From NCBI GenBank assembly GCA_903824855.1, contig CAIJYI010000041.1, positions 27,159-91,158 of the forward strand: a stretch of 64,000 bases of DNA, read 5' to 3'. Below the pieces are notes generated by a model. The model did not search any database, was not told the origin of the DNA, and worked only from the letters and a program-made list of their open reading frames with translations. Positions 1 through 61,120 of this stretch are shown here, piece by piece. Within the stretch, counting starts at the first letter, position 1; every line of letters starts with the position of its first letter. Source of the stretch: an uncultured bacterium (lineage in GTDB: Bacteria > Patescibacteriota > Minisyncoccia > Phycocordibacterales > CAIJYI01). The position numbers and the translations under genes were made by a program.

Positions 1-177
1 GAATTGGCAATTAGGGACTCAGAATCTAAAATTGCCGAATTGGAAGCGCAGTTTACCACGCTCGGAAAAAGCGTTGATGTGAATTTCGCTAAAGATATGG
101 GGTATCAAGAAATCTCCAAAATCGATTACGTCTCACGTTCTCCTGTCTTAACGATGCTCGACGGCCATGTCAGATAA
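1..177 (+). CDS. 3' end (58 codons + TAA) of an upstream gene cut by the window edge; product unknown
   Basis: Frame 1 is open from position 1 to TAA at 175-177 (...SRSPVLTMLDGHVR*). It overlaps the ftsI ATG by 11 nt. Its position upstream of ftsI would fit an FtsL-like gene, but no motif supports that. Confidence 0.3.
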   Translation, partial: ELAIRDSESKIAELEAQFTTLGKSVDVNFAKDMGYQEISKIDYVSRSPVLTMLDGHVR

Positions 178-3359: not shown

Positions 3360-3387
3360 TTGCTTTTTTATAAAAATATGCTATATT
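3360..3387 (+). promoter_or_regulatory. Putative promoter for tRNA-Glu (extended -10 TGcTATATT at 3379-3387; -35-like TTGCTT)
   Basis: Sequence match; lies 73 nt upstream of the tRNA. Confidence 0.3.
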
Positions 3388-3429
3388 CATAAAGTTCATC
3401 AAGTTATAAAGTTCATCAAGTTCATCAAG
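3386..3429 (+). repeat. Tandem 9-nt minisatellite (AAGTTCATC / AAGTTATAA units, about 4.5 copies) in the tRNA-Glu leader
   Basis: Direct reading. The same unit family recurs at 20161-20199 (inside alaS) and, as reverse complement, at 55878-55922. Confidence 0.8.
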
Positions 3430-3459: not shown

Positions 3460-3531
3460 GGCCCTATCGTCTAACGGTTAGGACGAAAGCTTCTCAAGCT
3501 TTAAATCAGAGTTCGATTCTCTGTAGGGTCA
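3460..3531 (+). tRNA. tRNA-Glu (anticodon CUC)
   Basis: Hand-folded cloverleaf. The 7-bp acceptor GGCCCTA/TAGGGTC has one G-T pair. D-stem is GTCT/GGAC. Anticodon stem AAAGC/GCTTT carries loop TTCTCAA, giving CTC. T-arm is CAGAG-TTCGATT-CTCTG, discriminator A. No CCA is encoded. Confidence 0.8.
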
Positions 3532-3555
3532 CAAAACGCAAAATAAATAAAAATT

Positions 3556-3602
3556 TGGGGGTCGTTCCGCCTTGTTGGCGGTGCGACCCCCAATTTTTTA
3601 TT
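3556..3602 (+). terminator. Rho-independent terminator downstream of tRNA-Glu
   Basis: GC-rich hairpin GGGGGTCG...CGACCCCC with an inner CCGCC/GGCGG stem, followed by AATTTTTTATTTATTTT. Confidence 0.75.
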
Positions 3603-3609
3603 TATTTTA

Positions 3610-9836: not shown

Positions 9837-10032
9837 AGAAAAAGTCCTATCAAAAATGCTTGACAGGGCTATTTCATTATGCTAACGTTGCGAAAGGTCG
9901 TTTTTGAGGAGAGTCTTCAAGAATAGACTATTTGTCCTTTGAAATAATAAAGTACGTAGAAAATCTAACTGATTATTTCAGGGAATTCATGCCGTTTTGG
10001 CATATTTCTTAACTTCTAAAAGGAAGAAAAAA

Positions 10033-10776
10033 ATGAATAAGTTATTACTTGCAGTATCTGTATCTTTATTACTTGGCTCCACTGCATTCGCAGACGTAAC
10101 TACTGCTCCTACTCCAACTACGGCAACAAGTACTTTATCCGTCACAGGTTATAGTCATGCGTTTGCTGAAGCACTTGGAAATCTGACTGGTGTGCAAACT
10201 CACGATACTCTTAATTTAACCGGATCACTTTCCGGTAGTGGGAATTTTATTACCGGTCAATCAACTGGTATTGCTGATGTTCTCGGTGCCGGTCCTACTC
10301 ATTCAATTGCGGAAAGTGGCATAATAGGCAGTCTTTCTTTGAGCCTTGACCCTCACTTTATTTCCGGAACTGGCAGTAGTGAGCAATATGGTGTGTTGAG
10401 TTCTTTAGGTACCGGATCAAGTATTGTTAGTGGCAGTTTGTCATTAAGCGGTAATTTAGGATCTAACTTTGGAAGCGCAAGTGCTCTGGATGGCGCAACA
10501 AGTACTCAATTTACATCCGGTTTGCTTTCTGCTCAAGGTTTGAGCTCCGGCGATCTTTGGATTAAAACAGCACTTACCCCAGCGATAATTCCAGACCCAG
10601 GTACAGGTGGTACCGGTGGTGACAACGGTAACAACGGTAACAACGGTAACGGTGGTAACAACGGTAACGGTGGTACTGGCCAAGATTATGGAAATGGTAA
10701 TGGCGGTACAAATAATGGTCATGGTAATGGCGGCAATAACGGTAATGGCCAAGGCACAGGCGGCGGTCAACAATAA
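10033..10776 (+). CDS. Secreted Gly/Ser/Thr/Asn-rich low-complexity protein with C-terminal (G-N-N/G-N-G)n repeats
   Basis: The track start is TTG 9997. The ATG at 10033 follows AGGAAG and begins a signal peptide (MNKLLLAVSVSLLLGSTAFA). The C-terminus carries GDNGNNGNNGNGGNNGNGG and related repeats. Confidence 0.55.
   Translation: MNKLLLAVSVSLLLGSTAFADVTTAPTPTTATSTLSVTGYSHAFAEALGNLTGVQTHDTLNLTGSLSGSGNFITGQSTGIADVLGAGPTHSIAESGIIGSLSLSLDPHFISGTGSSEQYGVLSSLGTGSSIVSGSLSLSGNLGSNFGSASALDGATSTQFTSGLLSAQGLSSGDLWIKTALTPAIIPDPGTGGTGGDNGNNGNNGNGGNNGNGGTGQDYGNGNGGTNNGHGNGGNNGNGQGTGGGQQ
10600..10765 (+). repeat. In-frame tandem 6/9-nt repeats (AACGGTAAC, GGTGGT, AATGGC) encoding (GNN/GNG)n
   Basis: Direct reading of GGTGACAACGGTAACAACGGTAACAACGGTAACGGTGGTAACAACGGTAACGGTGGT... 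Confidence 0.7.
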
Positions 10777-10901: not shown

Positions 10902-11906
10902 ATGAATCAGTTACAAAGAATTATCGCAGCAGTTTTTATCTCCGGGTGTGCAATTTCTTTTGCCGCATCCGCAGGAGATACAAACACCAATGTAGATGTC
11001 GGGAATAACGCAACAGCGCAAACTATTGGCGGAGCTCAAAATCAAACATTCCGTCAAGGTGATACTTACGTTAAAGTTTCACCCGCTGTGCCACTCCCAA
11101 ATACTGCGGCTTCACTCGCTGTCAATCCAACCACTTTTTTGAATAACGGTGCAGGCTTGGCGGAAAGGACTGCGCAATATAGTAGATTGTTTGCTCAATT
11201 TACTAAAGGTGTTGTTTCAGTCAACGGGTTAAATAGTAAACGTGGCGAAACAAAAACCACAGATACGGATTTTGCCGTCCTCGTATGGCAACCTTATTCC
11301 GATTACTATAATGGTGCGGTGAATGAAGATTTGTACGTCAAATCATTTTCGCCGATGATAACCGATATGTCTGTAGACTTTGGTGCTATGTCGCCAACAA
11401 CAAACTTTTTTGTTATCGGCCATGTCGCCGTGGTAACACCAAAAGGTTCTGATTTATCTGACGCCGTTTTGCAGGAAACATTAATCGCGGAAGCGGAAAA
11501 GTTTCTTGTAAACGAAGTTGAGATAACCGGTTTTACGGATATTACTCCAATGGTGATTTTTGAAACAACCGCATTCTATCAAGGCAGTGCCGTGACGAGT
11601 GGTGGTTATCAAATCTCTCCTCAAGTGAGCATGTTCCCCGGTGCCGGTGTTGGAACAGGCAGTTTCTTCAGCTTTCAAGATGTGAAAGGTCAATCAACTC
11701 CTGAATATCGCCTTGGTATGAAAATTGTTTTCTTAGCAAAAGCGACAAATGCAGGTGAAGGTCATGCGATAGTTGCAAAAGTGCAACAAATCAGTAAGAC
11801 TATTGCAGAAAAAGCCGCCAGCGAAAAAGCTGCAGCAGCCGAAAGGTCATCTGAAATGGCAGTTAAACATTCTGTTGACACTGCTGTAGATAAAACAGCT
11901 CAATAA
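10902..11906 (+). CDS. Secreted hypothetical protein
   Basis: 334 aa. Signal peptide MNQLQRIIAAVFISGCAISFAASA. No known domain recognised. Confidence 0.55.
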   Translation: MNQLQRIIAAVFISGCAISFAASAGDTNTNVDVGNNATAQTIGGAQNQTFRQGDTYVKVSPAVPLPNTAASLAVNPTTFLNNGAGLAERTAQYSRLFAQFTKGVVSVNGLNSKRGETKTTDTDFAVLVWQPYSDYYNGAVNEDLYVKSFSPMITDMSVDFGAMSPTTNFFVIGHVAVVTPKGSDLSDAVLQETLIAEAEKFLVNEVEITGFTDITPMVIFETTAFYQGSAVTSGGYQISPQVSMFPGAGVGTGSFFSFQDVKGQSTPEYRLGMKIVFLAKATNAGEGHAIVAKVQQISKTIAEKAASEKAAAAERSSEMAVKHSVDTAVDKTAQ

Positions 11907-11971: not shown

Positions 11972-12004
11972 AAGCTCTTCATTTTTATGGAGAGCTTTTT
12001 TTAT
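11972..12004 (+). terminator. Hairpin (AAGCTCT...AGAGCTT) with a large loop and a T-run
   Basis: Direct reading. Separates the secreted-protein gene from the sigma-factor promoter. Confidence 0.4.
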
Positions 12005-12017: not shown

Positions 12018-12047
12018 CTGGCATAAAAATAGTATTCTTTGTATGAT
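12018..12047 (+). promoter_or_regulatory. Conserved promoter-like element copy A (CTGGCATAAAAATAGTATTCTTTGTATGAT), ending 6 nt before the sigma-gene ATG
   Basis: The same 30-mer recurs at 18764-18793 upstream of tsaC, and the following 10 nt also match 9/10. It contains a -10-like TATGAT and a -35-like CTGGCA with an 18-nt spacer, implying a leaderless transcript. Confidence 0.45.
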
Positions 12048-12053
12048 TAGAAA

Positions 12054-12602
12054 ATGAACGATGAGGATATCGTGAAATTAGTACAGAACGGCGATATTGA
12101 AATCTTCGGTGTTTTGATTGAACGTTACGAGGAGAAGATGCTTCGATATGCGCGAAAATTTTTATTTGGTACTGATTCTGCAACTGATCTGGTGCAGGAT
12201 GTTTTTACGAAAGCCTATATTAATATATCCGGTTTTGATACAGCGAAAAGATTTTCTCCGTGGCTTTATCGTATTGCGCATAATTGTTTCATAAATGAAT
12301 TAAAGAAAAATAAACGAGAACCCGTGCCGATGTTTGATATGGACATTTTTTTCCCGAATTATCCTCAGAATGATACGCCGGAAACAGAGGTGATTCGAAA
12401 TGAGTTAAAAAAGACACTTGGCGATTGTATTAATAATATCGATTACAAATATAAAGAAGTTCTCATCTTGTATTATTATGAAGAATTAAGTTATAAGGAG
12501 ATTTCGGATATCTTGCATATCCCCGTGGCAACCATAGGAATGAGGATTAGCCGCGGAAAGGAAGCAATGAAAAAAATTATACTTAAGGAACAAGAAATAT
12601 GA
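12054..12602 (+). CDS. ECF-family RNA polymerase sigma factor (sigma-70 regions 2 and 4)
   Basis: 182 aa. Region 2 is DLVQDVFTKAY...WLYRIAHNCFINELKK. The region 4 HTH is LSYKEISDILHIPVATIGMRISRGKEAMKK. Confidence 0.8.
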   Translation: MNDEDIVKLVQNGDIEIFGVLIERYEEKMLRYARKFLFGTDSATDLVQDVFTKAYINISGFDTAKRFSPWLYRIAHNCFINELKKNKREPVPMFDMDIFFPNYPQNDTPETEVIRNELKKTLGDCINNIDYKYKEVLILYYYEELSYKEISDILHIPVATIGMRISRGKEAMKKIILKEQEI

Positions 12603-13309
12603 GTAACTCAAAAACAAAATCGATAAAAAATTCAATATTGTATAAAATAAAAAATGGAGACATTAAGAAACTTCCAAAAGTTATTTTTAATGTAAAATCG
12701 GCTTTTTTTATTGTTGCGTTATTCCTCGTTCTGTCTTTTTCAGTTTTTGTGTTAAGTTTTATTGTTTTTTCACTTCAGATCTCCGGACTATGGAAGCTTT
12801 CATTTTTTGGAATTAAAGGATTTCAGATGTTAATTAGTAATTTACCTTGGATCATTATTCTTCTGGTCATAGGGTTTATTGTCATTTTGGAGATTATGGT
12901 AAACAGATATTCCTTCTCTTATCGAAAACCATTTCTGTATACCTCATTAATGGTAATCTGTCTAGTCGTCGTGACAAGTCTCGTTATTAGAAAAACTTCC
13001 TTTGATGAAAATTTTTATTCAAAAATTGAACAGGGAAAAATACCGGCATTTAAGCCGCTATACGAAAAGTATGTTAATCCGAGTCCTGAATACTTTCACC
13101 CCGGGACGTTGATAAAAATGGAACCCGAAGGTTTTATCCTTGAGCTTCATGATAAAAAAACTATTTTTGTGAGGATATCCGAAAAAACAGAAAAGCGAAT
13201 CGGTTTTGAAATTTATCCAGGAACTCGATTACTCGTTGTCGGTAAAATAGTGAACGAAATTATTGACGCAGAAATCATCGATAATGCGCCCTCTAGTGGG
13301 CGTCCGTAA
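12599..13309 (+). CDS. Membrane protein, putative anti-sigma factor
   Basis: 236 aa. Start overlaps the sigma-gene stop (ATGA). It has a cytoplasmic N-terminus followed by 3-4 TM helices. The anti-sigma role is inferred from synteny only. Confidence 0.4.
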   Translation: MSNSKTKSIKNSILYKIKNGDIKKLPKVIFNVKSAFFIVALFLVLSFSVFVLSFIVFSLQISGLWKLSFFGIKGFQMLISNLPWIIILLVIGFIVILEIMVNRYSFSYRKPFLYTSLMVICLVVVTSLVIRKTSFDENFYSKIEQGKIPAFKPLYEKYVNPSPEYFHPGTLIKMEPEGFILELHDKKTIFVRISEKTEKRIGFEIYPGTRLLVVGKIVNEIIDAEIIDNAPSSGRP

Positions 13310-13342
13310 TATTATTTTTTTTCAATTGTAGTAATATATAGA

Positions 13343-13366
13343 GAGCATCTGTGCTCGTTTATTATT
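13343..13366 (+). terminator. Weak hairpin (GAGCA-TCTG-TGCTC) followed by GTTTATTATTT
   Basis: Direct reading. Confidence 0.3.
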
Positions 13367-13392
13367 TATATATTTCTAAAATATAATTATTT

Positions 13393-15021
13393 ATGAAATT
13401 TTTTCTTATGAATCCGATGCGCATCGTTATTTTATTATTAACATTCGGTATAATCGCGGTGGGCGGGTTTTGGTACTCATCGGATCATAGAGCAAATTTA
13501 TCAAACTCCGATATTTCCGCCGCAACGTCAACTGATAGTGCTTCTTATATAAGACCCTCAACAGAAGCAGATAAGACAAATAATCCGCCTCCAGAGGCTG
13601 CAATTATTGCTTGTTCTGGTAAATCAATTGGCGTAGCATGTCAATTTTCAGATAATGGAAACATTGCTGTTGGTGTCTGCGACGATAACCCTGGTGTCCT
13701 CGCTTGTAGAAAAAATGATGACGCTGGCGTTGGACAAACAGCTACAGGGACAACAAAACCGACGACAGGAACTACGGGTGCATCGATAAATAGTCAACCA
13801 TCAAAAACAACAACGACAACCACTTCTACCACCACAACTAAACCTACTACCCCGCCTTCATCCGGGGGGCAGAGCAGTTACAGTATAACGCAGGCAATTT
13901 CTGATCAAGCTCAATTAAACACGCTGGCTTTTGATGGGCTCGGATTTTTAACCGGAAATACTTGCTCGGATTCATTTTTACCTCCGGGAAAAGTTGCTGA
14001 TTTTTTCGGTTTTCAATATTTGAGAGATACCACGGCGAACGGAAAAGGACATGATACTGATTTCGTAACCAACTCGGCTAATAATGTTCTGTATACTTTA
14101 ACGGCTGCACAAAAAGCGAAGATGACTGCGCTTGCGAAATCACAGAGCTCCCAAGTAAATGAATTCGCGTATAAAAGATTTCCTTTGATGGTAGCTTTTC
14201 GCCGCGAATTTACAGGAGATATTCCATCCGGAACAACTGGTTTGAGTAAAACAGCAGTAATGGACTATTCCGCGGATCTCTATGAAATTGATGCTCAGAT
14301 AAGTTTGGAGAGGGCACAATTATTTGGAGAGATTATCAGGTCACTTTCAACTGAACAGAAAGCATATTTTGATGCTATGGTGAAAGGAGGTTTTGCCTCG
14401 TGGAAGATCTTACCGGACCAGGTTGATAAGGTAAATCTTACTGTTGACCAGTCAGTGCTTATGATGACGTATGCGAGCGAAATGTTTGGTTGGTATGCGG
14501 GAAATATTGAAGCTGATACATATTTCTGCCCTGAGAGGCAGGCGGATTACTTTGGCGGATTTTATATAAAAGACGCTCCGGCTATTGGGAATGCCGGTTA
14601 TACTATCGATGAATCTATCACCGGCGACCAAGGTCAAGCTTTCTTAAATGCTTTAAGTAGTGCACAAAAACCAATCATAACAACTTTAGTTGACACACAA
14701 AGAACAGCAATCAACAGTATTGTCGAAAAAAGACGTGCTATTTCAACCGAATTGCGCAATGCCTTGTCGACAGGAACAATTGATACCGAAAAGGTAATTG
14801 CTTTGTCGAGACAATACGGGGAATTGGACGGAGAAATTTCATATTATTACGCTTCTGCCTTCTCAAAGGTCGGTAAAACTCTCACTACTGATCAAAAAGC
14901 GAATTTGGTGAAGTTAAAAAATCTTGACGGATATTCTTGCCCAAGTACTTCTGCATATCTCTATTCGGCAAAGATTACAATGCCAACAGTTGAAAGTACA
15001 GATTTTCTTTTTGCTAAATAA
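13393..15021 (+). CDS. Large membrane-anchored extracytoplasmic protein with a Cys-rich module and Thr-rich linker (hypothetical)
   Basis: 542 aa. Starts with an N-terminal TM, then a 6-Cys module (CSGKSIGVACQF...CDDNPGVLAC), a TTTTTTSTTTTKPTTPP linker and a ~380-aa C-terminal domain of unknown family. Confidence 0.55.
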   Translation: MKFFLMNPMRIVILLLTFGIIAVGGFWYSSDHRANLSNSDISAATSTDSASYIRPSTEADKTNNPPPEAAIIACSGKSIGVACQFSDNGNIAVGVCDDNPGVLACRKNDDAGVGQTATGTTKPTTGTTGASINSQPSKTTTTTTSTTTTKPTTPPSSGGQSSYSITQAISDQAQLNTLAFDGLGFLTGNTCSDSFLPPGKVADFFGFQYLRDTTANGKGHDTDFVTNSANNVLYTLTAAQKAKMTALAKSQSSQVNEFAYKRFPLMVAFRREFTGDIPSGTTGLSKTAVMDYSADLYEIDAQISLERAQLFGEIIRSLSTEQKAYFDAMVKGGFASWKILPDQVDKVNLTVDQSVLMMTYASEMFGWYAGNIEADTYFCPERQADYFGGFYIKDAPAIGNAGYTIDESITGDQGQAFLNALSSAQKPIITTLVDTQRTAINSIVEKRRAISTELRNALSTGTIDTEKVIALSRQYGELDGEISYYYASAFSKVGKTLTTDQKANLVKLKNLDGYSCPSTSAYLYSAKITMPTVESTDFLFAK

Positions 15022-15039
15022 CTATTCATTATTAATTTT

Positions 15040-15756
15040 TTGAAACATATGTATAAAGATACCGATAAAGTCGTTTTGATTACGGACAATGATGATCTTG
15101 TCGTGGAAAGCAGTGATGACAAGAATCAAACAAAAAATAAAGAAAAAATAATTATTGCCGTATTGTCTGTCGTATTTTTGATTCTTCTTTGTGGAGTCAT
15201 TTGGGATCTTTATGGAAGAAAAACCTTGACCATATATTTATGCGGAACAGAAATAGCGACAAGCACTGCTGGTTTATTGGGTACGAGTACCCCGAAAGAT
15301 CTTTCCATTGCATCACAAAATACAGCGAGTCCCGAAACTCCCCCAGCAACTCCTTCTGGTGTCAAAAAGAGCGTAGGCAATACCCCGCTAAAACCTTCAG
15401 GAAATACTACCGCGTCTATAACGAAACCGAGTAGTAGTGTCGCATACTCTTCATATGGCACCTGTATAGAAAATGCGAAAGATCTTGGTTCCAGTAAAGA
15501 TTGCTGTGATTGTTTGAGCGCTGATGTTTCCGTGAGAAAAGCATGTAGAGACTTCGCGGCGACGTATGATTTTACAAAAAATACAACAATAAAAACATTC
15601 ACTATTCCTTCGTCTCTCGGTCGAACCGGAAATTATACTGCTTACACATCAAGTGCCACACAACAAGAATGTAAGCAAAAATGTGATTCTTCTACAACTC
15701 TTCAGTGTGGCGATTTTCAATTCTGTCGGACTGCGTGCGATAGTATGACACAATAA
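15040..15756 (+). CDS. Membrane-anchored Cys-rich secreted protein (hypothetical)
   Basis: 238 aa. TM helix precedes a C-terminal domain with about 12 Cys (CCDC...CRTAC). Confidence 0.45.
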   Translation: MKHMYKDTDKVVLITDNDDLVVESSDDKNQTKNKEKIIIAVLSVVFLILLCGVIWDLYGRKTLTIYLCGTEIATSTAGLLGTSTPKDLSIASQNTASPETPPATPSGVKKSVGNTPLKPSGNTTASITKPSSSVAYSSYGTCIENAKDLGSSKDCCDCLSADVSVRKACRDFAATYDFTKNTTIKTFTIPSSLGRTGNYTAYTSSATQQECKQKCDSSTTLQCGDFQFCRTACDSMTQ

Positions 15757-15762
15757 TCAAAT

Positions 15763-16968
15763 ATGAATAAGAAGGTTTTTATTTCGCTCATTTGTGCGTT
15801 GGTTGTCGGGATTATTTCGATTTCGTATTTTTGGGTCGCAAACAGAGACAAAAAAATAATTTCTTCCGAAACATTATCGCAATCCGAACAGGTAACCAAA
15901 TCAACCTCTACCGAACAAATAGTCACGATTACCGAGCCGTCGACCGTCACCTCGCAAAATTCCGTTCAGGGAAGTTTCTCGTTTGGAATTCAGGGCGATT
16001 CTCATCCTGAAAGAGCGGGAAAAATGTTTAATGCGGATTTGTATGCAATAAACCTGCAAAATGCAAATAATGCTAATCTCGCGTTTTATTTTCTTCTCGG
16101 CGATGACTTCAGTATTGAGAAATTGATTGAGGACAAGACCTTTACTCAAGAAACTGTTGATAAAGTATATTTGCAGCAAAAAAATTATTTGAAAAATATT
16201 TCCGTGCCGATTTATTTAGTGAACGGCAACCATGAGCAAGAAGCCAAATATTTACTGGACGGTACGAATAATAATCCGGCAATTTTAGCAAAAAACGCGC
16301 GCGCAAAATTTTTTGATTCTCCCGGCGCCGAAAACGGTTACTACTCTTTCACGCATGGAGATGCTCTCTTTGTTGTTATTGATTTTTATTGGCATTCGGA
16401 CTTGGCGGCGGATAATGTTGCCGGCGCAAAGGGCGGAAGCGCGAAACGAAGCGATTTATGGAACAATACGCTCGGCGACGTCCAATATCAATGGTTTAAA
16501 AAAACACTGGAAGAAAGCAAGGCGAAATATAAATTCGTTTTCACACATCATGTTCTGGGCACAGGGCGCGGAGGAGTGGAGGAAGCAAAGTTGTATGAAT
16601 GGGGCGGATACAACTCAAAAGGCGTTTGGGAATTTGATACCAAAAGGCCGGGATGGGAATTGCCGATTCATCAGCTGATGGCGAAAAACGGTGTGACGAT
16701 ATTTTTCCAGGGACATGATCACTTATTCGCCAAACAAGAACTTGATGGAGTAATCTATCAGGAGGTTCCAAACCCTGCGGATAATACTTATACGGCATTC
16801 AACAAAGATGCCTATAAAACGGGAACCGTATTACCGAATTCCGGATATCTCAATGTGACGGTTTCGCCGACGAATGTAAAAGTTGATTATATACGAGCAT
16901 TCCTTCCAAAAGACGAAACGGCAACGAGTAAAAACGGTTCCGTAGCTTTTTCCTATACCGTTCAATAA
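15763..16968 (+). CDS. Membrane-anchored calcineurin-like metallophosphoesterase (purple-acid-phosphatase-like), paralog 1
   Basis: 401 aa. Metallophosphoesterase motifs GDSHPE...GDD...GNHE...HH...GHDH are present, after an N-terminal TM. Confidence 0.7.
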   Translation: MNKKVFISLICALVVGIISISYFWVANRDKKIISSETLSQSEQVTKSTSTEQIVTITEPSTVTSQNSVQGSFSFGIQGDSHPERAGKMFNADLYAINLQNANNANLAFYFLLGDDFSIEKLIEDKTFTQETVDKVYLQQKNYLKNISVPIYLVNGNHEQEAKYLLDGTNNNPAILAKNARAKFFDSPGAENGYYSFTHGDALFVVIDFYWHSDLAADNVAGAKGGSAKRSDLWNNTLGDVQYQWFKKTLEESKAKYKFVFTHHVLGTGRGGVEEAKLYEWGGYNSKGVWEFDTKRPGWELPIHQLMAKNGVTIFFQGHDHLFAKQELDGVIYQEVPNPADNTYTAFNKDAYKTGTVLPNSGYLNVTVSPTNVKVDYIRAFLPKDETATSKNGSVAFSYTVQ

Positions 16969-16977
16969 ATTTGAATC

Positions 16978-18129
16978 ATGAAAATCTTCAAAACATCATA
17001 CATTATTATCGCTTTGCTTATCGGAATCTGCGCTGTTTCCGTTTTTTGGGCGATGAATAAAAATACTGCGGAAGAGATTTTTCCCGAACAAGCGGCGGAA
17101 ATTTCACGGTCGACAACGACGCCAGCAGACATCAACGCGACAAGCCAATCTCCCGCCACACAGGGTGAAGCAGTGGACGCAGTGGAAGAGACCTCAAAGG
17201 AAGTCGCCGGCGGCGACGATAATTACGTTTTTGATATAGAAGCCGATCCTCATATGGATGAGCAGTCTGATTCCAAAATTTATACTCAGACCTTAAAAAA
17301 TATTGTGAGCGACAAACCGGCATTTTTGATAGACCTCGGTGATATTTTTATGGTGGATAAATTGTCTGATAAAAGCGAGGCAAATATAAAAGCGCGCTAC
17401 GACCTCATGAAAGGATATTATGACCTGCTCGGGTCCATTCCTCTCTATTTTGCGATGGGAAACCATGATGGAGAAGTTGGCTGGGATAAGCTCTATACGA
17501 AGAATTATCGTCTCCAATATTTCCCGAAAGAAACCTACGATAAAAACTATTATTCTTTTGAAAAGGAAAATGCGCTTTTTGTCGTTCTTGACCCGTACAT
17601 GTATACGACGACGAAGCCAAATGAGAACGGGTGGGACTGGACACTTGGAAAAGCGCAATATGATTGGTTGAAAAAAACACTTGAGTCGAGTAATGCAAAA
17701 TATAAATTTGTGTTCATTCACCAGCTCGTTGGCGGAGATAACCAAGGACGCGGAGGTATTGAATTTGCCAAACTCTATGAATGGGGAGGAAACAACATCG
17801 ACGGCAGTTATGGATTTACATTGAATCGTTCAGGATGGGGAACTCCGATTCATCAATTGCTGGTCGATAACAAAGTTGATGTAGTTTTTAAAGGTCACGA
17901 TCATTTTTTCGCTAAGCAAATATTGAATGGAGTGATATATCAAACAGTTCCACAGCCAAGTCATCCTGGGGCTAATATTAATACTGCGGAGGAGTATGGA
18001 TATTTAAATGGAGTAATTCTCGGAGGTTCCGGTTATTTGAGAGTGACAGTTATGGACACAAAAGCTCTGGTTGAATTTGTTAAGACAAATAGCACAAAAG
18101 ATGTTGCGGATTCATATTCTATACAATAA
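16978..18129 (+). CDS. Membrane-anchored calcineurin-like metallophosphoesterase, paralog 2
   Basis: 383 aa. Clearly paralogous to 15763-16968 (KYKFVFxHxxxGxxxGRGGxExAKLYEWGG...PIHQL...GHDHxFAKQxLxGVIYQxVPxP). Arranged as a tandem duplicate. Confidence 0.7.
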   Translation: MKIFKTSYIIIALLIGICAVSVFWAMNKNTAEEIFPEQAAEISRSTTTPADINATSQSPATQGEAVDAVEETSKEVAGGDDNYVFDIEADPHMDEQSDSKIYTQTLKNIVSDKPAFLIDLGDIFMVDKLSDKSEANIKARYDLMKGYYDLLGSIPLYFAMGNHDGEVGWDKLYTKNYRLQYFPKETYDKNYYSFEKENALFVVLDPYMYTTTKPNENGWDWTLGKAQYDWLKKTLESSNAKYKFVFIHQLVGGDNQGRGGIEFAKLYEWGGNNIDGSYGFTLNRSGWGTPIHQLLVDNKVDVVFKGHDHFFAKQILNGVIYQTVPQPSHPGANINTAEEYGYLNGVILGGSGYLRVTVMDTKALVEFVKTNSTKDVADSYSIQ

Positions 18130-18222
18130 AAAAATGTAACTTTTTCTGGTGCTGATTCCATAGTATAGATGGATACAAGATGTATTTTGTTTAAGATAAT
18201 TATTAATAATATTAAAATTACG

Positions 18223-18660
18223 ATGAAAAAAACTATCGTTTTAGGTCTTAGTGTTGCCTTATTGGCCATGTCTGGAAGTATTACTTATGCACAGATAAAA
18301 AGCGTTGGAGCAAAAGCTTTTGCAAATCAAAATGCAAGTATGAATCTTCCTTGTGTTCAGACAGCTGTTGGGGTCAGAGAAACAGCTATTCAAGCTTCAT
18401 TTACAAAATTCACGTCATCAACATTAACAGCAATGCAGACAAGAGCTACTGCACTTAATACTGCTTGGGGTATGACCGTTGGAGCAGAAAGAAGAGCTGC
18501 TCGGAAAGCTGCCTGGGATGCATATAAGTCAACCAACGATGCAGCACGAGCAACTTTTAAAACGGAAAAACAAGTAGCTTGGGATACATTCAACAAAGCT
18601 TCCGCTGTGTGTGGGGTCGAAGTTGTAGAAACACCTTCTCAAGACGGGTTGACAATATAA
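18223..18660 (+). CDS. Secreted hypothetical protein
   Basis: The track start is 18169. The ATG at 18223 begins a signal peptide (MKKTIVLGLSVALLAMSGSITYA). The rest is Ala/Thr-rich and probably helical. Confidence 0.5.
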   Translation: MKKTIVLGLSVALLAMSGSITYAQIKSVGAKAFANQNASMNLPCVQTAVGVRETAIQASFTKFTSSTLTAMQTRATALNTAWGMTVGAERRAARKAAWDAYKSTNDAARATFKTEKQVAWDTFNKASAVCGVEVVETPSQDGLTI

Positions 18661-18682
18661 AACTACACTAAGATATAAAGAC

Positions 18683-18720
18683 AAAAAATACCCTGACTAA
18701 AGCGACGGGTATTTTTTTAT
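18683..18720 (+). terminator. Terminator-like hairpin (AAAAATACCC...GGGTATTTTTTT)
   Basis: Direct reading. Confidence 0.5.
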
Positions 18721-18763
18721 ATAAAAACAATAAAAATTTTATTTTATAAAAGTACTTATCTTG

Positions 18764-18793
18764 CTGGCATAAAAATAGTATTCTTTGTATGAT
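18764..18793 (+). promoter_or_regulatory. Conserved promoter-like element copy B, identical 30-mer to 12018-12047, ending 6 nt before the tsaC ATG at 18800
   Basis: Direct comparison. Confidence 0.45.
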
Positions 18794-18799
18794 GAGAAA

Positions 18800-19342
18800 A
18801 TGAGAAATATGGATATTATCGAAATTCTGAAAAACGGTGGTATTGGGATTTTTCCGACCGATACATTGTATGGATTGGTTGGCTCGGCACTTAATCCGTC
18901 CGTAGTGGAAAGAATTTACAAGGTAAGAAAACGGTCAGACGGGAAACCGTTTATTGTTTTGATACACGAGATTAAAGATCTTGAATCTTTTGGCATTTTA
19001 ATTCAGAGTGAAGAAGTAAAAACCGCACAAACGTATTGGCCCGGCCCCGTGAGTATAATTTTACCGTGCGATAATCCTCAATTTGAATATTTGCATCGAG
19101 GAACGAAATCAATCGCTTTTCGCTTGCCGGCAGACATTGAACTTCATAATTTTCTCAAAGAAACCGGTCCGCTTGTCGCACCTTCCGCCAATACCGAAGG
19201 GAATCCGCCGGCACTTACCATAGAAGAAGCAAAAAACTATTTCGAAGACGAAGTTGATTTTTACGTTGATGAAGGAAAAAAGGAAGCTCTGCCTTCAAAA
19301 ATTTTAAAAATTGTCGGAAGTTCTGTTACTACTCTGCGATAA
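18800..19342 (+). CDS. tsaC: L-threonylcarbamoyladenylate synthase (YrdC/TsaC family)
   Basis: The track start is 18785. By analogy with the sigma-gene copy of the upstream element, the start is more likely 18800 (MRNMDIIEIL...). The YrdC-domain signature is GIFPTDTLYGLVG plus a KxR motif. Confidence 0.7.
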   Translation: MRNMDIIEILKNGGIGIFPTDTLYGLVGSALNPSVVERIYKVRKRSDGKPFIVLIHEIKDLESFGILIQSEEVKTAQTYWPGPVSIILPCDNPQFEYLHRGTKSIAFRLPADIELHNFLKETGPLVAPSANTEGNPPALTIEEAKNYFEDEVDFYVDEGKKEALPSKILKIVGSSVTTLR

Positions 19343-19386: not shown

Positions 19387-21171
19387 ATGCAATCAAATGA
19401 AATAAGGGCGAGATTTTTAACTTTTTTTGAGAAACGCGGGCATGCAATTATCCCGAGCGCTTCACTCATTCCTGAAAATGACCCTTCAGTGCTTTTCAAC
19501 ACGGCCGGAATGCAACCATTAGTGCCGTATCTTCTTGGAGAGTCACATCCGAGTGGTGCGACACGTCTCGCGAATTCACAGAAATGCGTCAGAACGGTTG
19601 ATATCGATGAGATAGGTGATAATACCCATGCGACATTTTTTGAAATGCTCGGCAACTGGTCGCTCGGAGATTATTTTAAGGAAGAGGCCATCGAATGGAG
19701 TTTTAAATTACTTACCGACAAAGAAGAAGGATTTGGACTCGATCCGAAACGACTGTATGTAACAGTTTTTGAAGGTGATGAAAATGCTCCTCGTGATGAC
19801 GAGGCTTTTGAAATCTGGAAAAAATATATTCCCGAACATCGCATTTATTTTATGGGTGCGAAGAATAACTGGTGGAGCCCCGGAGATAATGGTCCGTGCG
19901 GTCCCGATTCGGAAATGTTTTACGATGTGACGGTTGAAGGACTCGGTGACATGACGAAGGAAGAATACTTGAAAGCTGATGATGAACAAAAAATTGTTGA
20001 AATCTGGAACGATGTTTTCATGGAATATGAAAAGAAAGATGGAAAAGTAATAGGGAAGTTGTCAAAGAAAAACGTTGATACCGGATCAGGGCTAGAGCGC
20101 GTGACGATGGTCGTTCAAGGAAAAAATAATATTTATGATACCGATTTACTGCAACCGATAGTTCATCAAGTTCATAAAGTTTCTCAAGTTCGTCAAGTTA
20201 CGGACGGAAATGAACGTGTCGAGCGAATTATCGCCGACCACTTGCGCACTTCGATTTTTATGATTGCGGATGGCGTTGTTCCGTCCAATACCGATAGAGG
20301 TTACATCTTGCGACGTCTTTTACGTCGTGCGGTAAGACTTTCACATACCTTGGAACTCAGTTGCGGGCTGGAAGAACTTGTCGGTTCTGTTATTCATATT
20401 TATACTGATTCCTATCCGAATTTAGTAAAAGATGCCGTCAGAATTCAGAATGAAATAAAGAAAGAAGAAGAAAAATTCCGTCTCACACTCGTCCACGGAA
20501 TGAAAGAATTCGAAAGAATTTCAGAAGGGAAGAGTGAATTATCCGGAGCGGAAACCTTCAGTCTTTTTTCCTCGTATGGTTTTCCGATTGAGATAACAAA
20601 AGAACTTGCTTCTGAAAGAGGAATCGTCGTCGATGAAAAAGGCTTTGAAGAAGAATTCAAAAAACATAAAGAAATTTCTGCCGTCGGTTCCGAACAAAAA
20701 TTTAAAGGCGGACTGGCTGATACTTCGGAAATTTCGACGCGTTATCATACCGCCACACATCTTCTCCAAAAAGCTCTCCGTACGGTTTTAGGCGAACACG
20801 TTTTTCAGAAGGGAAGTAATATTACTGCCGAGAGAATGCGTTTTGACTTCTCTCATGGAGAAAAAATGACCGATGAACAGAAGAAAATGACGGAAGATTT
20901 GGTGAATGAAAAAATTAAGGAAGCCTTGCCGGTAATGTACGAGGATCTTCCGATTGATGAAGCCAGAAAACGCAATCCTATCGGCCTATTTGGCGATAAA
21001 TATGGCGATGTCGTTCGTGTTTATACAATAGGCGAAGGCGATAAAAAATGGAGCATTGAGCTTTGTGGAGGCCCACACGTGAAGAATACGAGTGAACTCG
21101 GTCATTTCAAAATCCTTAAAGAAGAAGCCGTGTCAGCAGGAGTCCGAAGAATAAAAGCTGTGCTTGAATAA
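19387..21171 (+). CDS. alaS: Alanyl-tRNA synthetase, short form (catalytic + tRNA-recognition + editing core; no C-Ala domain)
   Basis: 594 aa. N-terminal class II aaRS motifs are present, along with the editing-site motifs HTATHLL and CGGPHV near the C-terminus. The protein ends soon after CGGPHV. Confidence 0.9.
   Translation: MQSNEIRARFLTFFEKRGHAIIPSASLIPENDPSVLFNTAGMQPLVPYLLGESHPSGATRLANSQKCVRTVDIDEIGDNTHATFFEMLGNWSLGDYFKEEAIEWSFKLLTDKEEGFGLDPKRLYVTVFEGDENAPRDDEAFEIWKKYIPEHRIYFMGAKNNWWSPGDNGPCGPDSEMFYDVTVEGLGDMTKEEYLKADDEQKIVEIWNDVFMEYEKKDGKVIGKLSKKNVDTGSGLERVTMVVQGKNNIYDTDLLQPIVHQVHKVSQVRQVTDGNERVERIIADHLRTSIFMIADGVVPSNTDRGYILRRLLRRAVRLSHTLELSCGLEELVGSVIHIYTDSYPNLVKDAVRIQNEIKKEEEKFRLTLVHGMKEFERISEGKSELSGAETFSLFSSYGFPIEITKELASERGIVVDEKGFEEEFKKHKEISAVGSEQKFKGGLADTSEISTRYHTATHLLQKALRTVLGEHVFQKGSNITAERMRFDFSHGEKMTDEQKKMTEDLVNEKIKEALPVMYEDLPIDEARKRNPIGLFGDKYGDVVRVYTIGEGDKKWSIELCGGPHVKNTSELGHFKILKEEAVSAGVRRIKAVLE
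20161..20199 (+). repeat. In-frame tandem 9-nt repeat (GTTCATCAA / GTTCATAAA / GTTTCTCAA / GTTCGTCAA) inside alaS encoding VHQVHKVSQVRQV
   Basis: Direct reading. Same unit family as the arrays at 3386-3429 and 55878-55922. Confidence 0.7.
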
Positions 21172-30402: not shown

Positions 30403-31719
30403 ATGCCAAAAAAGTCAAAAATTGTGAAAAAGGCGAAAAAGGCTGTGGAACCAAAAAAGGCTCCAAAAAAGAAGGAAGTAAAGAAACCGACAAAACCGGT
30501 TAAGAAGCTGCCTGCTAAAAAAATAGTTATTTCGAAGAAACCGGTAAAAAAGATTCCGGTTAAAAAAGCGGCGAAGTTCGAAGTGTCAAAGAAAAAGAAA
30601 GAGGTTAAAGCTCCGAAAGTTGCCCGCCCAAAAGAAACGGTTGAAGAAAAAAAGGACCGCGTTTTGAATCAGGAAAAGAAAGCCGAAATACTTATCGCGA
30701 AAGGACGTGAACGTGGATTCATTACCTATGATGAAATTATCCGCGAATTCCCGAATGTTGAAGACGATATCCTTTTTCTCGATGAACTCTATGACAAATT
30801 AAATCAAGTTGGTATTGATGTCTTGGAAAGTGGCGGACTCTTGGAAGAGACTGACGACATTCTCAAAAAATATTCCATCGGAAGTGGCGCATCAAAAGAT
30901 TCCATTCAGATGTACCTGCGCGAAATCGGACAATATCCTCTCCTTTCGGCTCACGAAGAAAGAGAACTCGCAAAAAGAATTGAAGCCGGCGATGCAGAAG
31001 CGAAAGGACTTCTTGCAAAAGCAAACCTTCGCCTCGTTGTTTCTATTGCAAAAAAATACGTCGGAAGAAGCCCTGACCTCACACTCCTCGACTTAATTCA
31101 GGAAGGAAATATCGGACTCTTCAAAGCGGTTGAGAAATTTGAATATGCAAAAGGATTTAAGTTTTCCACCTATGCAACTTGGTGGATTCGCCAAGCTATC
31201 ACTCGCGCTCTCGCCGACCAATCCAGAACGATTCGTATTCCTGTCCACATGGTTGAAACAATTGCAAAATACAAACAAGTTTCCAGAAGATTAAGCCAAG
31301 ACCTCGGTCGCGATCCTCTCGCTTCAGAAATCGCCACAGAAATGGGACTCGACGTTGAAAAAATTCACAATATTGAAAACATTGTCCAAGATACCGTTTC
31401 TCTCGAAAAACCAATCGGTGACGAAGACGATAAATCAACTCTCGGAGAATTTATTGCAGACGAAAAGATTCTCGCTCCGGACCAAGAAGTTTCCAGAAGA
31501 ATTTTGACCGACCAAGTAAAAATGATTTTAAACGATCTCTCTCAGAAAGAAAGAAAGATTTTGGAAATGCGACACGGACTCGTCGACGGCGTCACTCATA
31601 CTCTTGAAGAAGTAGGAAAAGAATTCGGAGTTACCCGCGAGCGTATCCGCCAGATTGAAGCTAAAGCTCACGAGAAGATTCGACAGCATCCGGGCGCCGA
31701 TAAACTGCAAGGATATTAA
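30403..31719 (+). CDS. rpoD: Primary RNA polymerase sigma factor (sigma-70) with an ~80-aa Lys/Pro/Val-rich N-terminal extension
   Basis: 438 aa. Region 2.4 is [13 protein letters not shown] and region 4.2 is [21 protein letters not shown]. The N-terminus is KK(x)PxKK repeats resembling histone H1. Confidence 0.9.
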
Positions 31720-32599: not shown

Positions 32600-33283
32600 A
32601 TGCAAGATTTTATCTGGGAACGCGAATATCGAAACCCGCTTTTGGTTACCAAAGGCGAGGATCCGCAGAAAGATACTCTGCGATTTTTGAAGTGGCTCCG
32701 GCGCGAGAGAGAAATTCCTCTTGATCATCTCTCCGTGCTAGATTTGGGATGCGGAACAGGACGAAATTCAAACTATCTCGCAGAACTCGATAATATTGTT
32801 ACCGGATACGAAATTTCAAAAACGGCAATCGAACTGGCAAAAGAACGAGCAAAAAATCTCAAAATCAATGTTGACTATCGAGTCCAGAATATCGGTGCTC
32901 CATACCCACTCGCTGATAATTCAATGGATGTCGTTATTGATGTAACTTCGTCAAATTCATTAAATGAACAAGAAAGAGAAATCTATCTTTCTGAAACAGC
33001 ACGAGTATTAAAACAGGGCGGACATTTTTTTGTAAAAACTCTCTGCAAAGACGGCGACCAGAATGCAAAAGCGCTCATAAAAAATAATCCGGGTCCGGAA
33101 TATGACACCTATATCAATAAAGACATGGGGTTAACCGAGCGCGTTTTTACCGAGAAAGATTTCAGAGAAATGTATTCAAAATATTTTCAAATCCTCGAAC
33201 TGGAAAAAAAGACCAGCTACACCAGATTCAAAAATCAAAGCTACAAAAGAAATTTCTGGCTAGCGTATATGGTAAAATTTTAA
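32600..33283 (+). CDS. Class I SAM-dependent methyltransferase
   Basis: 227 aa. Motif I is VLDLGCGTGRNSNYLA. An acidic motif II follows after a beta strand. Confidence 0.7.
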   Translation: MQDFIWEREYRNPLLVTKGEDPQKDTLRFLKWLRREREIPLDHLSVLDLGCGTGRNSNYLAELDNIVTGYEISKTAIELAKERAKNLKINVDYRVQNIGAPYPLADNSMDVVIDVTSSNSLNEQEREIYLSETARVLKQGGHFFVKTLCKDGDQNAKALIKNNPGPEYDTYINKDMGLTERVFTEKDFREMYSKYFQILELEKKTSYTRFKNQSYKRNFWLAYMVKF

Positions 33284-33286
33284 ATC

Positions 33287-33311
33287 CACTTGGCGGTGAA
33301 ACCGCCAAGTG
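33287..33311. repeat. REP-like 25-nt perfect palindrome (CACTTGGCGG-TGAAA-CCGCCAAGTG), followed by T8
   Basis: Direct reading; 4 nt after the methyltransferase stop codon. Confidence 0.85.
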
Positions 33312-33383
33312 TTTTTTTTGACAAATTCGATTATTTAGTGTAATTTGAGAAAGGAATTTGTTGATTTGAAATTGGAGAAAAAA

Positions 33384-51229: not shown

Positions 51230-51246
51230 ATCTATTTAAGAAATTC

Positions 51247-51270
51247 ACTTGGCGGTTTCACCGCCAAGTG
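51247..51270. repeat. REP-like palindrome (CACTTGGCGG-TTTCA-CCGCCAAGTG)
   Basis: Direct reading; 18 nt after the stop of 50894-51229. Confidence 0.85.
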
Positions 51271-51280
51271 ATTTTTAATA

Positions 51281-51310
51281 ATAAAAAAAGCGCACTATTC
51301 GGTGCGCCTT
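51281..51310 (-). terminator. Terminator hairpin (AAGCGCAC-TATTCG-GTGCGCCTT) with a T-run on the minus strand
   Basis: Lies downstream of the minus-strand gene 51317-51709. Confidence 0.55.
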
Positions 51311-51734: not shown

Positions 51735-53681
51735 TTAGGGCTTTAAGGTTTGGGAAGACGATAGTTTTAATTCCAGATTACCTTTAATAATCAAATCCGA
51801 AGCACTGGTCGCTTTTACTTCTTCTTCATAGAGCGTTTTACAGTCTTCAATGGGAAGGACGGTTTGTTTTGACATTGAAAGACATTCGCCATTCTCAAAC
51901 AATCCTCCATCCGTAAAGTTTTTGTAAGTAAGATTTCCGGTCAGTATCGTTGTTATTGCCTTTGAATAAGCGTTGCGAAGGGTCACTCGGTGAGTTTTTC
52001 CGAGCAAATCTTTTCCAAAAAGAGTGCTGGTTGATGTGATGCCGAGAATGTTTTCCACTGTGGGATAAAAATCAAGGTGACTTCCGGGGGTTGAATAAGT
52101 TTTTGCGGGAAGATTGGTTCCGAGAAGAATAAGAGGGACATTACTTGAACGTGTTTCTTTGAAAGCTTTTGTGGTTGATGTCCCAATTAAATCAGAAATA
52201 CCGTAAAGATTTCCGTGATCGCCGTAGATTGCGATTACGGAATTATTATAGAGACCATTTACTTTTAATCCCGCGATAAATTCGCCGATGGCCATGTCGG
52301 TATAATGTATACTTTGCAAATAATCTTTCTGAATAGCATTAAAAGGAGATTTTTCAGGAATGGAGAGTGTCTGTAAATTGGTCGGAATTTTGAATGGTGT
52401 GTGTGAAGAAAGGGTAATCAGTGTCGCCATGAATGGAGACTGAAATCCCGTCATTTCTTGCAATGACTGAGCAAAAAAATCAGAATCGGGAAGGTATTCG
52501 GTTTTCATCGGAACAGGCAAAACAAAATCAGATTTGCTAAAAGATTTTTCATATCCGAGCGCGGGATAAATATTGGAACGATTCCAGAAGGTCGGTTCAT
52601 CTGCGTGCAGGGAATAGGTTCGGTAACCATTTTCTTTCAGGAGGGAAGGGAGAGCGTGGTATTTGTTGTGCGCAAAATCTATAAACGCGACGGTGTTTGT
52701 TAGTGAGTAGAGAGAATTAAGAATGACAAATTCAGCATCGGCCGTATTTCCGGCGCCAACCTGAGTATAATAATTATTGAAATACAAACCGTGTTTTGCA
52801 AGAATATTTAAATTCGGAGTAATTTCCTGACCATTTATTTTTTGAAAAAGTACGGAATTCTCCAAGGACTCTACTTGAATAATGATGAGATTTTTATTTT
52901 TTGCCGAACCGAAGGTGTTCGTTTTTCCTATTTTTGGTACTGCGTCTTTCCATTCTAAAACAAGTGCGATATCTTCGGGGGTTAATTTTGTACTTCGCAA
53001 CGTCATCCCGATAAAATCAGCGGCAAAATAATTAAAAATTCCGATTCTCTGAACGGTCATGTTTGGAGAATAAACAAAGCTGTTCATCTCACGAATCGTT
53101 TGGGGAAAATGTGTGATTTTATACCAACCGTTTCCGTTGCCGAATAAAATTACACCGTATCCAAAAAGACCTATGATTATGATGCACAATAAATAAAAAA
53201 CGCGTAAGTTTTTCCACTTGGCGGTGAAACCGCCAAGTGGAAGTGTATCGATAATTTTTTCCTTTTTTTGGAGAAAAATTCCTATAAAAAGGACGACGAA
53301 TTGGAGAAGAAAAATGATAAGAGAAAAGGAAACAAGATTGAGTATTGATCCAGCGAGCGAGGTGGTTTGACCGGCATATTTAAGAGCCGAGGCCTGCATA
53401 AATCCGCCGAAGTAGGAAAAATAGAGATATTGAGCAAGAAAAAGCCATGCAACAAAAGAGGAAATAATAAAGAGATACACATAGCGCCACCATTTCGAAA
53501 AAAGTACCGATGGGCCGTAAAAAAGTATCCCGAGAGAGAAAGTTGAGAGAATAAAAAGAAAAAAGAAAGGACTGTCATGAAGCCCGACAAATATATTAAA
53601 AATCTGGTTTTGTGCGACGAATAATATCGCCAGTGAAATCGGCAGAAAAAGAAAAGAATTTTTTGGGAGAAATTTCTTCAT
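51735..53681 (-). CDS. LtaS-like sulfatase-family membrane enzyme (polyglycerolphosphate/lipoteichoic-acid synthase-like); contains an in-frame REP copy
   Basis: 648 aa. About 5 N-terminal TM helices, then a sulfatase domain (NLIIIQVESLEN...YYTQVGAGNTADAEF...). REP-encoded LPLGGFTAKW sits in the TM/linker region. Confidence 0.7.
   Translation of the reverse strand: MKKFLPKNSFLFLPISLAILFVAQNQIFNIFVGLHDSPFFFLFILSTFSLGILFYGPSVLFSKWWRYVYLFIISSFVAWLFLAQYLYFSYFGGFMQASALKYAGQTTSLAGSILNLVSFSLIIFLLQFVVLFIGIFLQKKEKIIDTLPLGGFTAKWKNLRVFYLLCIIIIGLFGYGVILFGNGNGWYKITHFPQTIREMNSFVYSPNMTVQRIGIFNYFAADFIGMTLRSTKLTPEDIALVLEWKDAVPKIGKTNTFGSAKNKNLIIIQVESLENSVLFQKINGQEITPNLNILAKHGLYFNNYYTQVGAGNTADAEFVILNSLYSLTNTVAFIDFAHNKYHALPSLLKENGYRTYSLHADEPTFWNRSNIYPALGYEKSFSKSDFVLPVPMKTEYLPDSDFFAQSLQEMTGFQSPFMATLITLSSHTPFKIPTNLQTLSIPEKSPFNAIQKDYLQSIHYTDMAIGEFIAGLKVNGLYNNSVIAIYGDHGNLYGISDLIGTSTTKAFKETRSSNVPLILLGTNLPAKTYSTPGSHLDFYPTVENILGITSTSTLFGKDLLGKTHRVTLRNAYSKAITTILTGNLTYKNFTDGGLFENGECLSMSKQTVLPIEDCKTLYEEEVKATSASDLIIKGNLELKLSSSQTLKP
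53215..53239. repeat. REP-like palindrome inside the LtaS-like ORF (in-frame, encodes LGGFTAKW)
   Basis: Direct reading, confirmed by back-translation against the ORF-track protein. Confidence 0.85.
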
Positions 53682-55877: not shown

Positions 55878-55922
55878 AACTTGATGAACCTGATGAACTT
55901 TATAAACTTGATGAACTTATAA
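55878..55922 (-). repeat. Tandem 9-nt minisatellite (reverse complement of AAGTTCATC units, 5 copies) covering the last 7 codons, the stop and the 3' flank of the M3 peptidase gene
   Basis: Direct reading. It encodes ...GFISSSSL* on the minus strand. Confidence 0.8.
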
Positions 55923-58077: not shown

Positions 58078-58190
58078 GTAGCTAAATCTGTTCTTATGTA
58101 AACATTATTTATTTATTATGTCAATTGAAATATTCCTGATATACTTTGCGTAATAAAGAGCATATTACTAATTAAAATTGTAAAAAATAT

Positions 58191-59488: not shown

Positions 59489-59494
59489 GCATTT

Positions 59495-59521: not shown

Positions 59522-59559
59522 AAATTTCAAGAGGAAAAGTTAAAGAATTATAGAAAAAA

Positions 59560-61100: not shown

Positions 61101-61120
61101 TTTGTTTATTTCAAATAATT

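Follow-up and report, generated by a model that had tools for sequence, protein, structure and literature searches.

A 40-nt promoter-like element shared by an ECF sigma factor gene and tsaC in a Patescibacteria genome, probably a copied promoter

Introduction

In the genome of an uncultured, ultra-small bacterium of the Patescibacteria, or Candidate Phyla Radiation (CPR), the gene of an extracytoplasmic function (ECF) sigma factor and tsaC, the gene of L-threonylcarbamoyladenylate synthase, begin directly behind almost the same 40 nucleotides. Both lie in a 64,000-nt stretch of contig CAIJYI010000041.1 (GenBank assembly GCA_903824855.1, forward strand, positions 27,159 to 91,158), which is called the window here and whose own numbering is used throughout. 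The question raised by this locus is whether the repeat marks a shared regulon or has some other origin. An earlier note on this DNA took it as the sign of a common regulator, either the ECF sigma factor acting on its own gene or a repressor controlling both genes. Our results suggested another answer. The element is probably one ordinary promoter of the housekeeping sigma-70 type, predicted to give leaderless mRNA, which was copied once. The copy at the sigma gene would derive from the ancestral promoter, the copy at tsaC would be the duplicate, and neither would be a regulon mark. Promoter duplication or capture is a known kind of event, which would here concern a little-studied lineage. Few members of the CPR/Patescibacteria can be grown, and for this reason there is hardly any work on how their genes are regulated; full-text searches of the literature gave no paper dealing with leaderless transcription or with ECF sigma promoters in the group.

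The element occurs twice and has sharp limits

The 40-nt element, CTGGCATAAAAATAGTATTCTTTGTATGAT(T/G)AGAAAATGA, is present in two copies on the plus strand, at 12018-12057 and 18764-18803, with 39 of the 40 positions identical. Copy 1 (CTGGCATAAAAATAGTATTCTTTGTATGATTAGAAAATGA) runs from a -35-like hexamer through the first base past the ATG of the ECF sigma gene. Copy 2 abuts the ATG of tsaC and differs only by a G for T at 18794 (element position 31). Direct reading and a search both confirmed the earlier description of two near-identical copies of about 40 nt with one mismatch, each ending at the ATG of an open reading frame. When up to three mismatches were allowed, exactly two sites were found in the window and none in any of 100 dinucleotide-preserving shuffles. 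Neither 18-nt half of the element had an additional match in the window at the same tolerance.

A search for further copies had been suggested, so as to define a regulon. No third copy was found in the window at up to 12 mismatches in 40, or in the flanking 10 kb on each side of it in the same genome at up to 10 in 40. Scans for the exact pattern in the GTDB genome collection and in the JGI metagenomes gave no match to the element, which indicates that the species is absent from both collections. In all, about 84 kb of the host genome was searched. Five matches to the 18-nt core in viral contigs had unrelated flanks and were regarded as chance.

Independent metagenome assemblies keep the copy-specific base. 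T was present in seven sigma-locus sequences (the window and six contigs) and G in six tsaC contigs. Since both variants recur in independent assemblies, the repeat is not an assembly artefact. Samples containing this organism underlie the ENA assemblies ERZ1426829 and ERZ27313xxx and the BUCK21-1 series. The sampled population is nearly clonal, with contigs of the same species at least 99.86% identical, and is uninformative for intergenic alignment.

The flanks of the 40 nt had been described as not matching. This was true of the 5' flanks, which are unrelated, and less so of the 3' flanks, where a weak similarity was detected. Among the 49 nt that follow the element, 29 are identical without a gap, the top value among the window's 1711 gene pairs (mean 14.2, standard deviation 3.3, z 4.5). 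They correspond to the first 17 codons of both genes on the plus strand (12058-12106 in the sigma gene, 18804-18852 in tsaC; 59% identical in register). The N-terminus of the sigma factor (..DEDIVKLVQNGDIEIFG..) and that of TsaC (..DIIEILKNGGIGIFPTDT..) are each standard for their own family and stand in the same register. Synonymous sites differ in four of the seven codons for shared amino acids, versus one difference across the 40 nt upstream. Because the N-termini are native and the synonymous sites differ, the 3' similarity is no remnant of the same duplication, and the recent repeat spans exactly the stretch from the -35-like hexamer to ATGA. The same two observations ruled out the repeat as the conserved core of a larger, older duplication reaching into the coding sequence. 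To judge from its codons, the coding similarity is convergent, arose at the protein level and is not recent.

The element has the geometry of a leaderless promoter

The -35-like hexamer CTGGCA (plus strand, 12018-12023 and 18764-18769) matches TTGACA at four of six positions, and the -10 hexamer TATGAT (plus strand, 12042-12047 and 18788-18793) matches TATAAT at five of six, with A2 and T6 among them. The layout is CTGGCA-18-TATGAT-6-ATG, with nine of 12 hexamer positions matched and the ATGs at 12054 and 18800. These positions and distances were confirmed as they had been given before. The 6 nt between the -10 hexamer and the ATG are TAGAAA in copy 1 and GAGAAA in copy 2, which contain no GGAG-like motif and no Shine-Dalgarno sequence. 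Thus the element agrees with the sigma-70 rules for both the distance between the hexamers (16-18 nt) and a -10 box placed 5-9 nt before a start without a Shine-Dalgarno sequence. A consensus scan listed both copies as pattern matches only, because its total was no higher than in shuffled sequences.

Each copy lies in an insulated intergenic region, with a terminator-like hairpin on one side and the ATG on the other. On the plus strand, a hairpin with a T-run at 11972-12004 (fold z -4.3) ends the gene at 10902-11906 and stands 14 nt before copy 1. The corresponding hairpin of copy 2 (AAUACCC...GGGUAUU with a U-run; plus strand, 18687-18719; fold z -4.5) ends the gene at 18169-18660 and lies about 45 nt before the element; none of 200 shuffles folded equally well.

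The same geometry recurs in other genes. TATGAT or TATAAT followed after 5-9 nt by ATG was also found at 4339, 13393, 19387, 58874 and 61162, and 12 of 60 genes in the window have a -10 box of at least five matches in six that ends 4-10 nt ahead of the ATG. Several of these 12 genes have a good -35 hexamer too, among them alaS (TTGAGA-16-TATAAT-8-ATG), the gene at 60102 (TTGTCA-17-TACAGT-8-ATG) and the gene at 4339 (TTGAGT-16-TATGAT-6-ATG). The genome therefore mixes genes with a Shine-Dalgarno sequence and genes with a -10 box near the ATG. In related CPR genomes, genes for VTT-domain proteins show TGnTAnnAT-6..8-ATG, and many orthologues of the sigma gene have a similar arrangement.

The -10 box of a bacterial promoter usually lies about 7 nt from the transcription start. 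With this distance, transcription from the element would begin at the A of the ATG. In the promoters of leaderless genes in Actinobacteria and Deinococcus-Thermus, the -10 box precedes the start codon by about 6-9 nt, and a Shine-Dalgarno sequence is lacking. The element is like them in that TATGAT ends 6 nt before the ATG without a Shine-Dalgarno sequence and in that other genes of the window and of CPR genomes share this geometry. It is unlike the described systems in its host, a member of the Patescibacteria/CPR, and in that its transcription start is a predicted one. The insulated setting between hairpin and ATG, the lack of a Shine-Dalgarno sequence and the recurrent geometry support the earlier suggestion of a promoter-like unit with leaderless or near-leaderless mRNA. 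This reading is plausible and fits the clade.

Several other identities for the element were considered and rejected. A sigma-54 promoter would require TGGCAC-N5-TTGCW; the element has TGGCAT-N5-TAGTA without GC at -12, and the pattern has no match in the window. As for known cis-regulatory RNAs, only two tRNAs in the window pass the Rfam gathering scores, and permissive local scans gave E values of 0.09 or worse, on terminators. An RNA or DNA hairpin within the element was rejected, since its fold is not significant (z +0.6 and -0.9). These fold values, a non-significant dyad and the presence of only two copies in about 84 kb also excluded a dispersed repeat such as a repetitive extragenic palindrome (REP) or a miniature inverted-repeat transposable element (MITE).

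The element does not fit the promoter motif of the ECF sigma family

The sigma gene (plus strand, 12054-12602) encodes 182 amino acids with the Pfam domains Sigma70_r2 and r4_2. The nearest solved structure is Bacillus subtilis SigW (5wuq, E 3e-29), and SigW is also the top NCBIfam model, with a score below its cut-off. A profile search for orthologues gave 80 metagenomic loci with 33-57% identity, and one further locus with 64% identity was fetched separately. The upstream regions of about half of the orthologous sigma loci share a bipartite motif, TGAAATAAA-N12/13-TTGTA(T/G)TAAT, with the core GAAATA-N16/17-GTATTA, often ending 4-11 nt before the sigma ATG. A position weight matrix was built from 26 sites of about 60 orthologous loci, which score 18.3-30.4 bits. 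Over 3.67 Mb the matrix gave 72 matches of at least 17 bits, almost all of them at sigma loci and pointing the same way as the sigma gene, with spacers of 16 or 17 nt (18 nt in two cases). The family sites occupy two conserved places, one directly before the sigma gene and the other about 1.3 kb downstream, past the anti-sigma gene and before a gene for a secreted protein.

The SigW promoters of B. subtilis carry TGAAAC as their -35 and CGTA as their -10 sequence (PMC5758882). The orthologues studied here resemble that system, as they carry TGAAAT-N16/17-TGTA(T/G)TA before the sigma gene and before the downstream gene for the secreted protein. Since the sigma factor is closest to SigW and the motif is SigW-like, the whole is a SigW-like system.

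Two canonical sites of this family were found in the window, both on the plus strand. The best one, GTAATA-16-GTAGTA at 13303-13337 (18.5 bits), spans the stop codon of the anti-sigma gene, lies 59 nt before the LTXXQ gene at 13393 and corresponds to the conserved second position in relatives. The other, GAAATA-17-GTAATA at 58124-58159 (18.3 bits), precedes an AhpC-type peroxiredoxin gene (plus strand, 58191-58820) by 35 nt; the AhpC/PrxU matches of this gene are below the NCBIfam cut-offs. The next-best site in the window scores 15.1 bits and the next-best region upstream of a gene 10.4 bits. The LTXXQ operon and the peroxiredoxin gene are the predicted regulon of this sigma factor. In relatives, the genes behind the second promoter encode small secreted proteins, to which the LTXXQ protein shows no homology by BLAST or Pfam; what is conserved is the position only.

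In contrast to these sites, the element scores 9.4 bits at the sigma gene and 5.9 bits at tsaC, versus at least 18.3 bits for the sites that built the matrix. It breaks three core positions that are near-invariant among high-scoring sites. Its -35 core is GGCATA against GAAATA of the family, and no high-scoring site has both the second and the third A replaced. Its -10 core is GTATGA against GTATTA (GTA(T/G/A/C)TA), in which the fifth base is T in all sites of the matrix. In addition, its ECF-type spacer of 15 nt is a length seen in none of the 72 matches. No change of specificity is expected on the side of the protein, because regions 2.4 and 4.2 conform to the family consensus. As far as its sequence tells, the element is not a canonical promoter for the ECF sigma factor of the window. 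It differs from the SigW motif in GGCATA, the 15-nt spacer and GTATGA, and the sites of the canonical type are those at 13303 and 58124. In view of the core positions, the spacer and the two good matches elsewhere, the proposed autoregulation by the ECF sigma factor is not supported.

A trace of the family motif is still present in copy 1. A score of 9.4 bits is reached by only 0.02% of window positions, and the ECF-type hexamer of copy 1 ends 7 nt from the ATG, within the 4-11 nt seen in about half of the orthologous loci. The rare score and the family-typical distance support descent of the sigma copy from an ancestral autoregulatory promoter.

Some further features of the sigma operon were noted. 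Several independent metagenome assemblies break within 13328-13421, the very AT-rich leader and start of the LTXXQ gene; contigs from the sigma side end at 13328 and 13383, and those from the tsaC side begin at 13409-13421. These breaks are probably an effect of coverage or assembly. Two tandem paralogous metallophosphatase genes (Pfam Metallophos; 15763-16968 and 16978-18129), which are 71% identical over a 92-nt stretch, belong to the sigma operon block, and the sigma operon of one relative likewise ends in a Metallophos gene. In a related organism from the same sample series (contig L093, 9700-9790), the orthologous sigma gene adjoins sequence resembling the 3' end of a tRNA gene, and a variant contig of that organism carries an insertion at the tRNA-like end with a serine recombinase, a Rep protein and a PemK toxin.

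The copy at tsaC is probably the younger one

The tsaC gene (plus strand, 18800-19342) encodes 180 amino acids and was identified by Pfam PF01300 (Sua5/YciO/YrdC; E 1e-42) and by NCBIfam TIGR00057 above its cut-off. Its start at 18800 agrees with the N-terminal register of homologues. Five relatives with the nearest TsaC proteins (61-66% identity) were examined, and four of them have tsaC as the second gene after a VTT/DedA gene, with a gap of a few nucleotides or an overlap. In these four, tsaC has no promoter of its own and the VTT gene bears a promoter of the leaderless type. A search for VTT genes gave none in the window and none in the 10 kb to its left and right. At the AlaRS loci of other CPR genomes, tsaC and this sigma gene are both missing within 10 kb. 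The nearest genomes are metagenome-assembled genomes of Patescibacteria/CPR (Paceibacteria-like), with at most 67% identity in AlaRS; the closest TsaC is 66% and the closest sigma factor 64% identical.

Because tsaC has no promoter of its own in most relatives, the tsaC copy is probably a lineage-specific duplicate of the sigma-gene promoter. Copy 1 is thus probably the older and copy 2 the derived one.

A single copying event explains the repeat better than a common regulator

We propose the following history. The sigma copy would be a diverged descendant of a SigW-like autoregulatory promoter, which has lost the ECF rules and now agrees with the sigma-70 rules. Relative to the family motif, its spacer is one base shorter and its -10 box has a T-to-G change, and both would be shifts toward the sigma-70 rules. 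The element would then most likely be read by the housekeeping sigma-70-type factor (gene at 30403-31719), and transcription would start no more than about 3 nt from the A of the ATG, giving a leaderless mRNA. A rearrangement may have parted tsaC from its operon partner and brought it behind the sigma operon. The tsaC ATG would subsequently have acquired, directly against it, a copy of the sigma-gene promoter from 6.7 kb upstream on this strand. The 6.7-kb unit may have been duplicated in tandem and then reduced by a deletion that joined at the shared ATGA and the similar first codons; alternatively, a short patch may have been templated in the course of DNA repair. The near-identity of the copies would reflect that the copying is evolutionarily recent, and not that a common regulator constrains every base.

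Several observations weigh against this history. Hexamers resembling a -10 box are common in an AT-rich genome, and among 60 genes they are enriched only about two-fold at 5-9 nt before an ATG. A spacer of 18 nt reaches the maximum for promoters of the sigma-70 type, and the -35 hexamer is weak. The element partly resembles the ECF motif, and a weak or dual recognition by the ECF sigma factor is possible. The fifth TsaC relative has a different gene upstream of tsaC, with a gap of 46 nt. No relative at the level of the genus was found, and the direction of copying is judged from relatives that are 61-66% identical in TsaC. The search of the host genome for further copies covered the window and 10 kb on either side. 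Finally, all functional statements on the element derive from sequence patterns.

The first rival to be weighed is that the element is a variant ECF promoter, with which the sigma factor would autoregulate its own operon and the tsaC copy would place N6-threonylcarbamoyladenosine (t6A) synthesis in the envelope-stress regulon. Copy 1 occupies the exact place of the autoregulatory promoter of the orthologues, TGGCATAAA and TTGTATGAT each share seven of nine bases with the family blocks TGAAATAAA and TTGTATTAA, and its score is rare in the window. However, this score is far under the minimum of the matrix-building sites, and the genes at 28638, 2004 and 54328 have equally high scores upstream. 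The three broken core positions, the 15-nt spacer, the unchanged regions 2.4 and 4.2 and the canonical sites at 13303 and 58124 also speak against it, and such a promoter was present in none of the TsaC orthologues examined. We regard this explanation as unlikely. It is quite unlikely that the element works as a hybrid, namely an ECF-derived promoter sensed by both the housekeeping sigma factor and the SigW-like one (or another, unknown factor). If it does, t6A modification of tRNA, and perhaps the downstream alaS, would be coupled to the envelope-stress response in a minimal CPR genome.

Another explanation is that the promoter contains an embedded operator, at which a dedicated repressor or activator would bind in both places, all bases being selected for the co-control of two operons. 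The identity of 39 in 40 includes spacer positions that promoters normally leave free, and an imperfect dyad, CATAAAAA-N8-TTTGTATG, lies between the -35 and -10 boxes. This dyad pairs seven of eight positions, however, which was equalled in 16% of shuffles of the element. Moreover, no candidate regulator gene adjoins the two copies that make up the whole set in about 84 kb, conservation of the element was not found in any other organism (the GTDB and JGI scans were among the searches), and a recent duplication accounts for the identity without constraint. We consider an operator very unlikely. Neither a common regulator with a shared regulon nor a co-controlling repressor found support: the few copies are better explained by a single copying event, and nothing apart from the non-significant dyad pointed to a repressor. 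The direct repeats also bracket a 6,746-bp block with the whole sigma operon, which is not beside tsaC in relatives. They could then be recombination scars, either attL and attR sites bounding a 6.7-kb island or the termini of a mobile element, with an incidental promoter function. But the block has no integrase, transposase or other recombinase and no terminal inverted repeats, and an attachment site whose 40 bp extend precisely from a -35 box to a start codon would be unusual. No empty site or alternative junction was seen among the places listed from 17 sigma and 18 TsaC contigs, where a near-clonal population could hide polymorphism. Such an origin is extremely improbable.

The copied promoter can be compared with a case from the laboratory. 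In the E. coli long-term evolution experiment, a promoter was reportedly captured through a tandem duplication of rnk-citT. The present case is similar in that a promoterless gene seems to have received a promoter copied from nearby, on the same strand and in direct orientation. It differs in the sharply bounded 40-nt cassette, versus a multi-kb tandem unit, and in that the event is deduced from relatives and not observed.

Significance

The locus offers a sequence-level case for leaderless promoters at a subset of genes in a CPR clade. It also illustrates promoter turnover in nature: the canonical autoregulatory promoter of the sigma gene has apparently been lost, and its replacement seems to have been copied to a gene for tRNA modification that is essential and whose operon partner was lost. 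No current idea is overturned by these results, but they correct the view that the repeat marks a regulon. Of more use are two by-products, the SigW-like motif of the CPR sigma family, with its conserved two-promoter layout, and the small predicted regulon in the window, which consists of the LTXXQ operon and the peroxiredoxin gene.

Other repeats and insertions in the window

A palindromic hairpin repeat, CACTTGGCGG-TGAAA/TTTCA-CCGCCAAGTG, has eight copies in the window (33282-33327, 51241-51286, 53210-53255, 59491-59536, 61116-61161, 61335-61380, 61608-61653 and 61819-61864). Two inverted copies directly flank a Y1-type transposase gene at 61162-61818 (218 amino acids; Pfam Y1_Tnp). The hairpin repeats and the transposase resemble the arrangement of REP sequences with their associated tyrosine transposases (REP/RAYT), here in a CPR genome.

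Two repeats with a period of 9 nt were also observed. One of them (AGTTCATCA-like) is located at 3384-3429, at 20160-20199 inside alaS and, inverted, at 55878-55917, with copies that are 88-96% identical. The tandem repeat at 10600-10675 (GGTAACAAC-like) belongs to the open reading frame at 9997-10776 and encodes a low-complexity stretch rich in Gly and Asn.

Immediately behind the tRNA gene at 3460-3531, some strains (contigs L179 and L180, from about 13370) carry an insertion with a large serine recombinase, in either orientation; these strains are identical to the window only as far as 3535. Near this tRNA gene, the window itself has a 32-nt near-perfect hairpin at 3540-3608.

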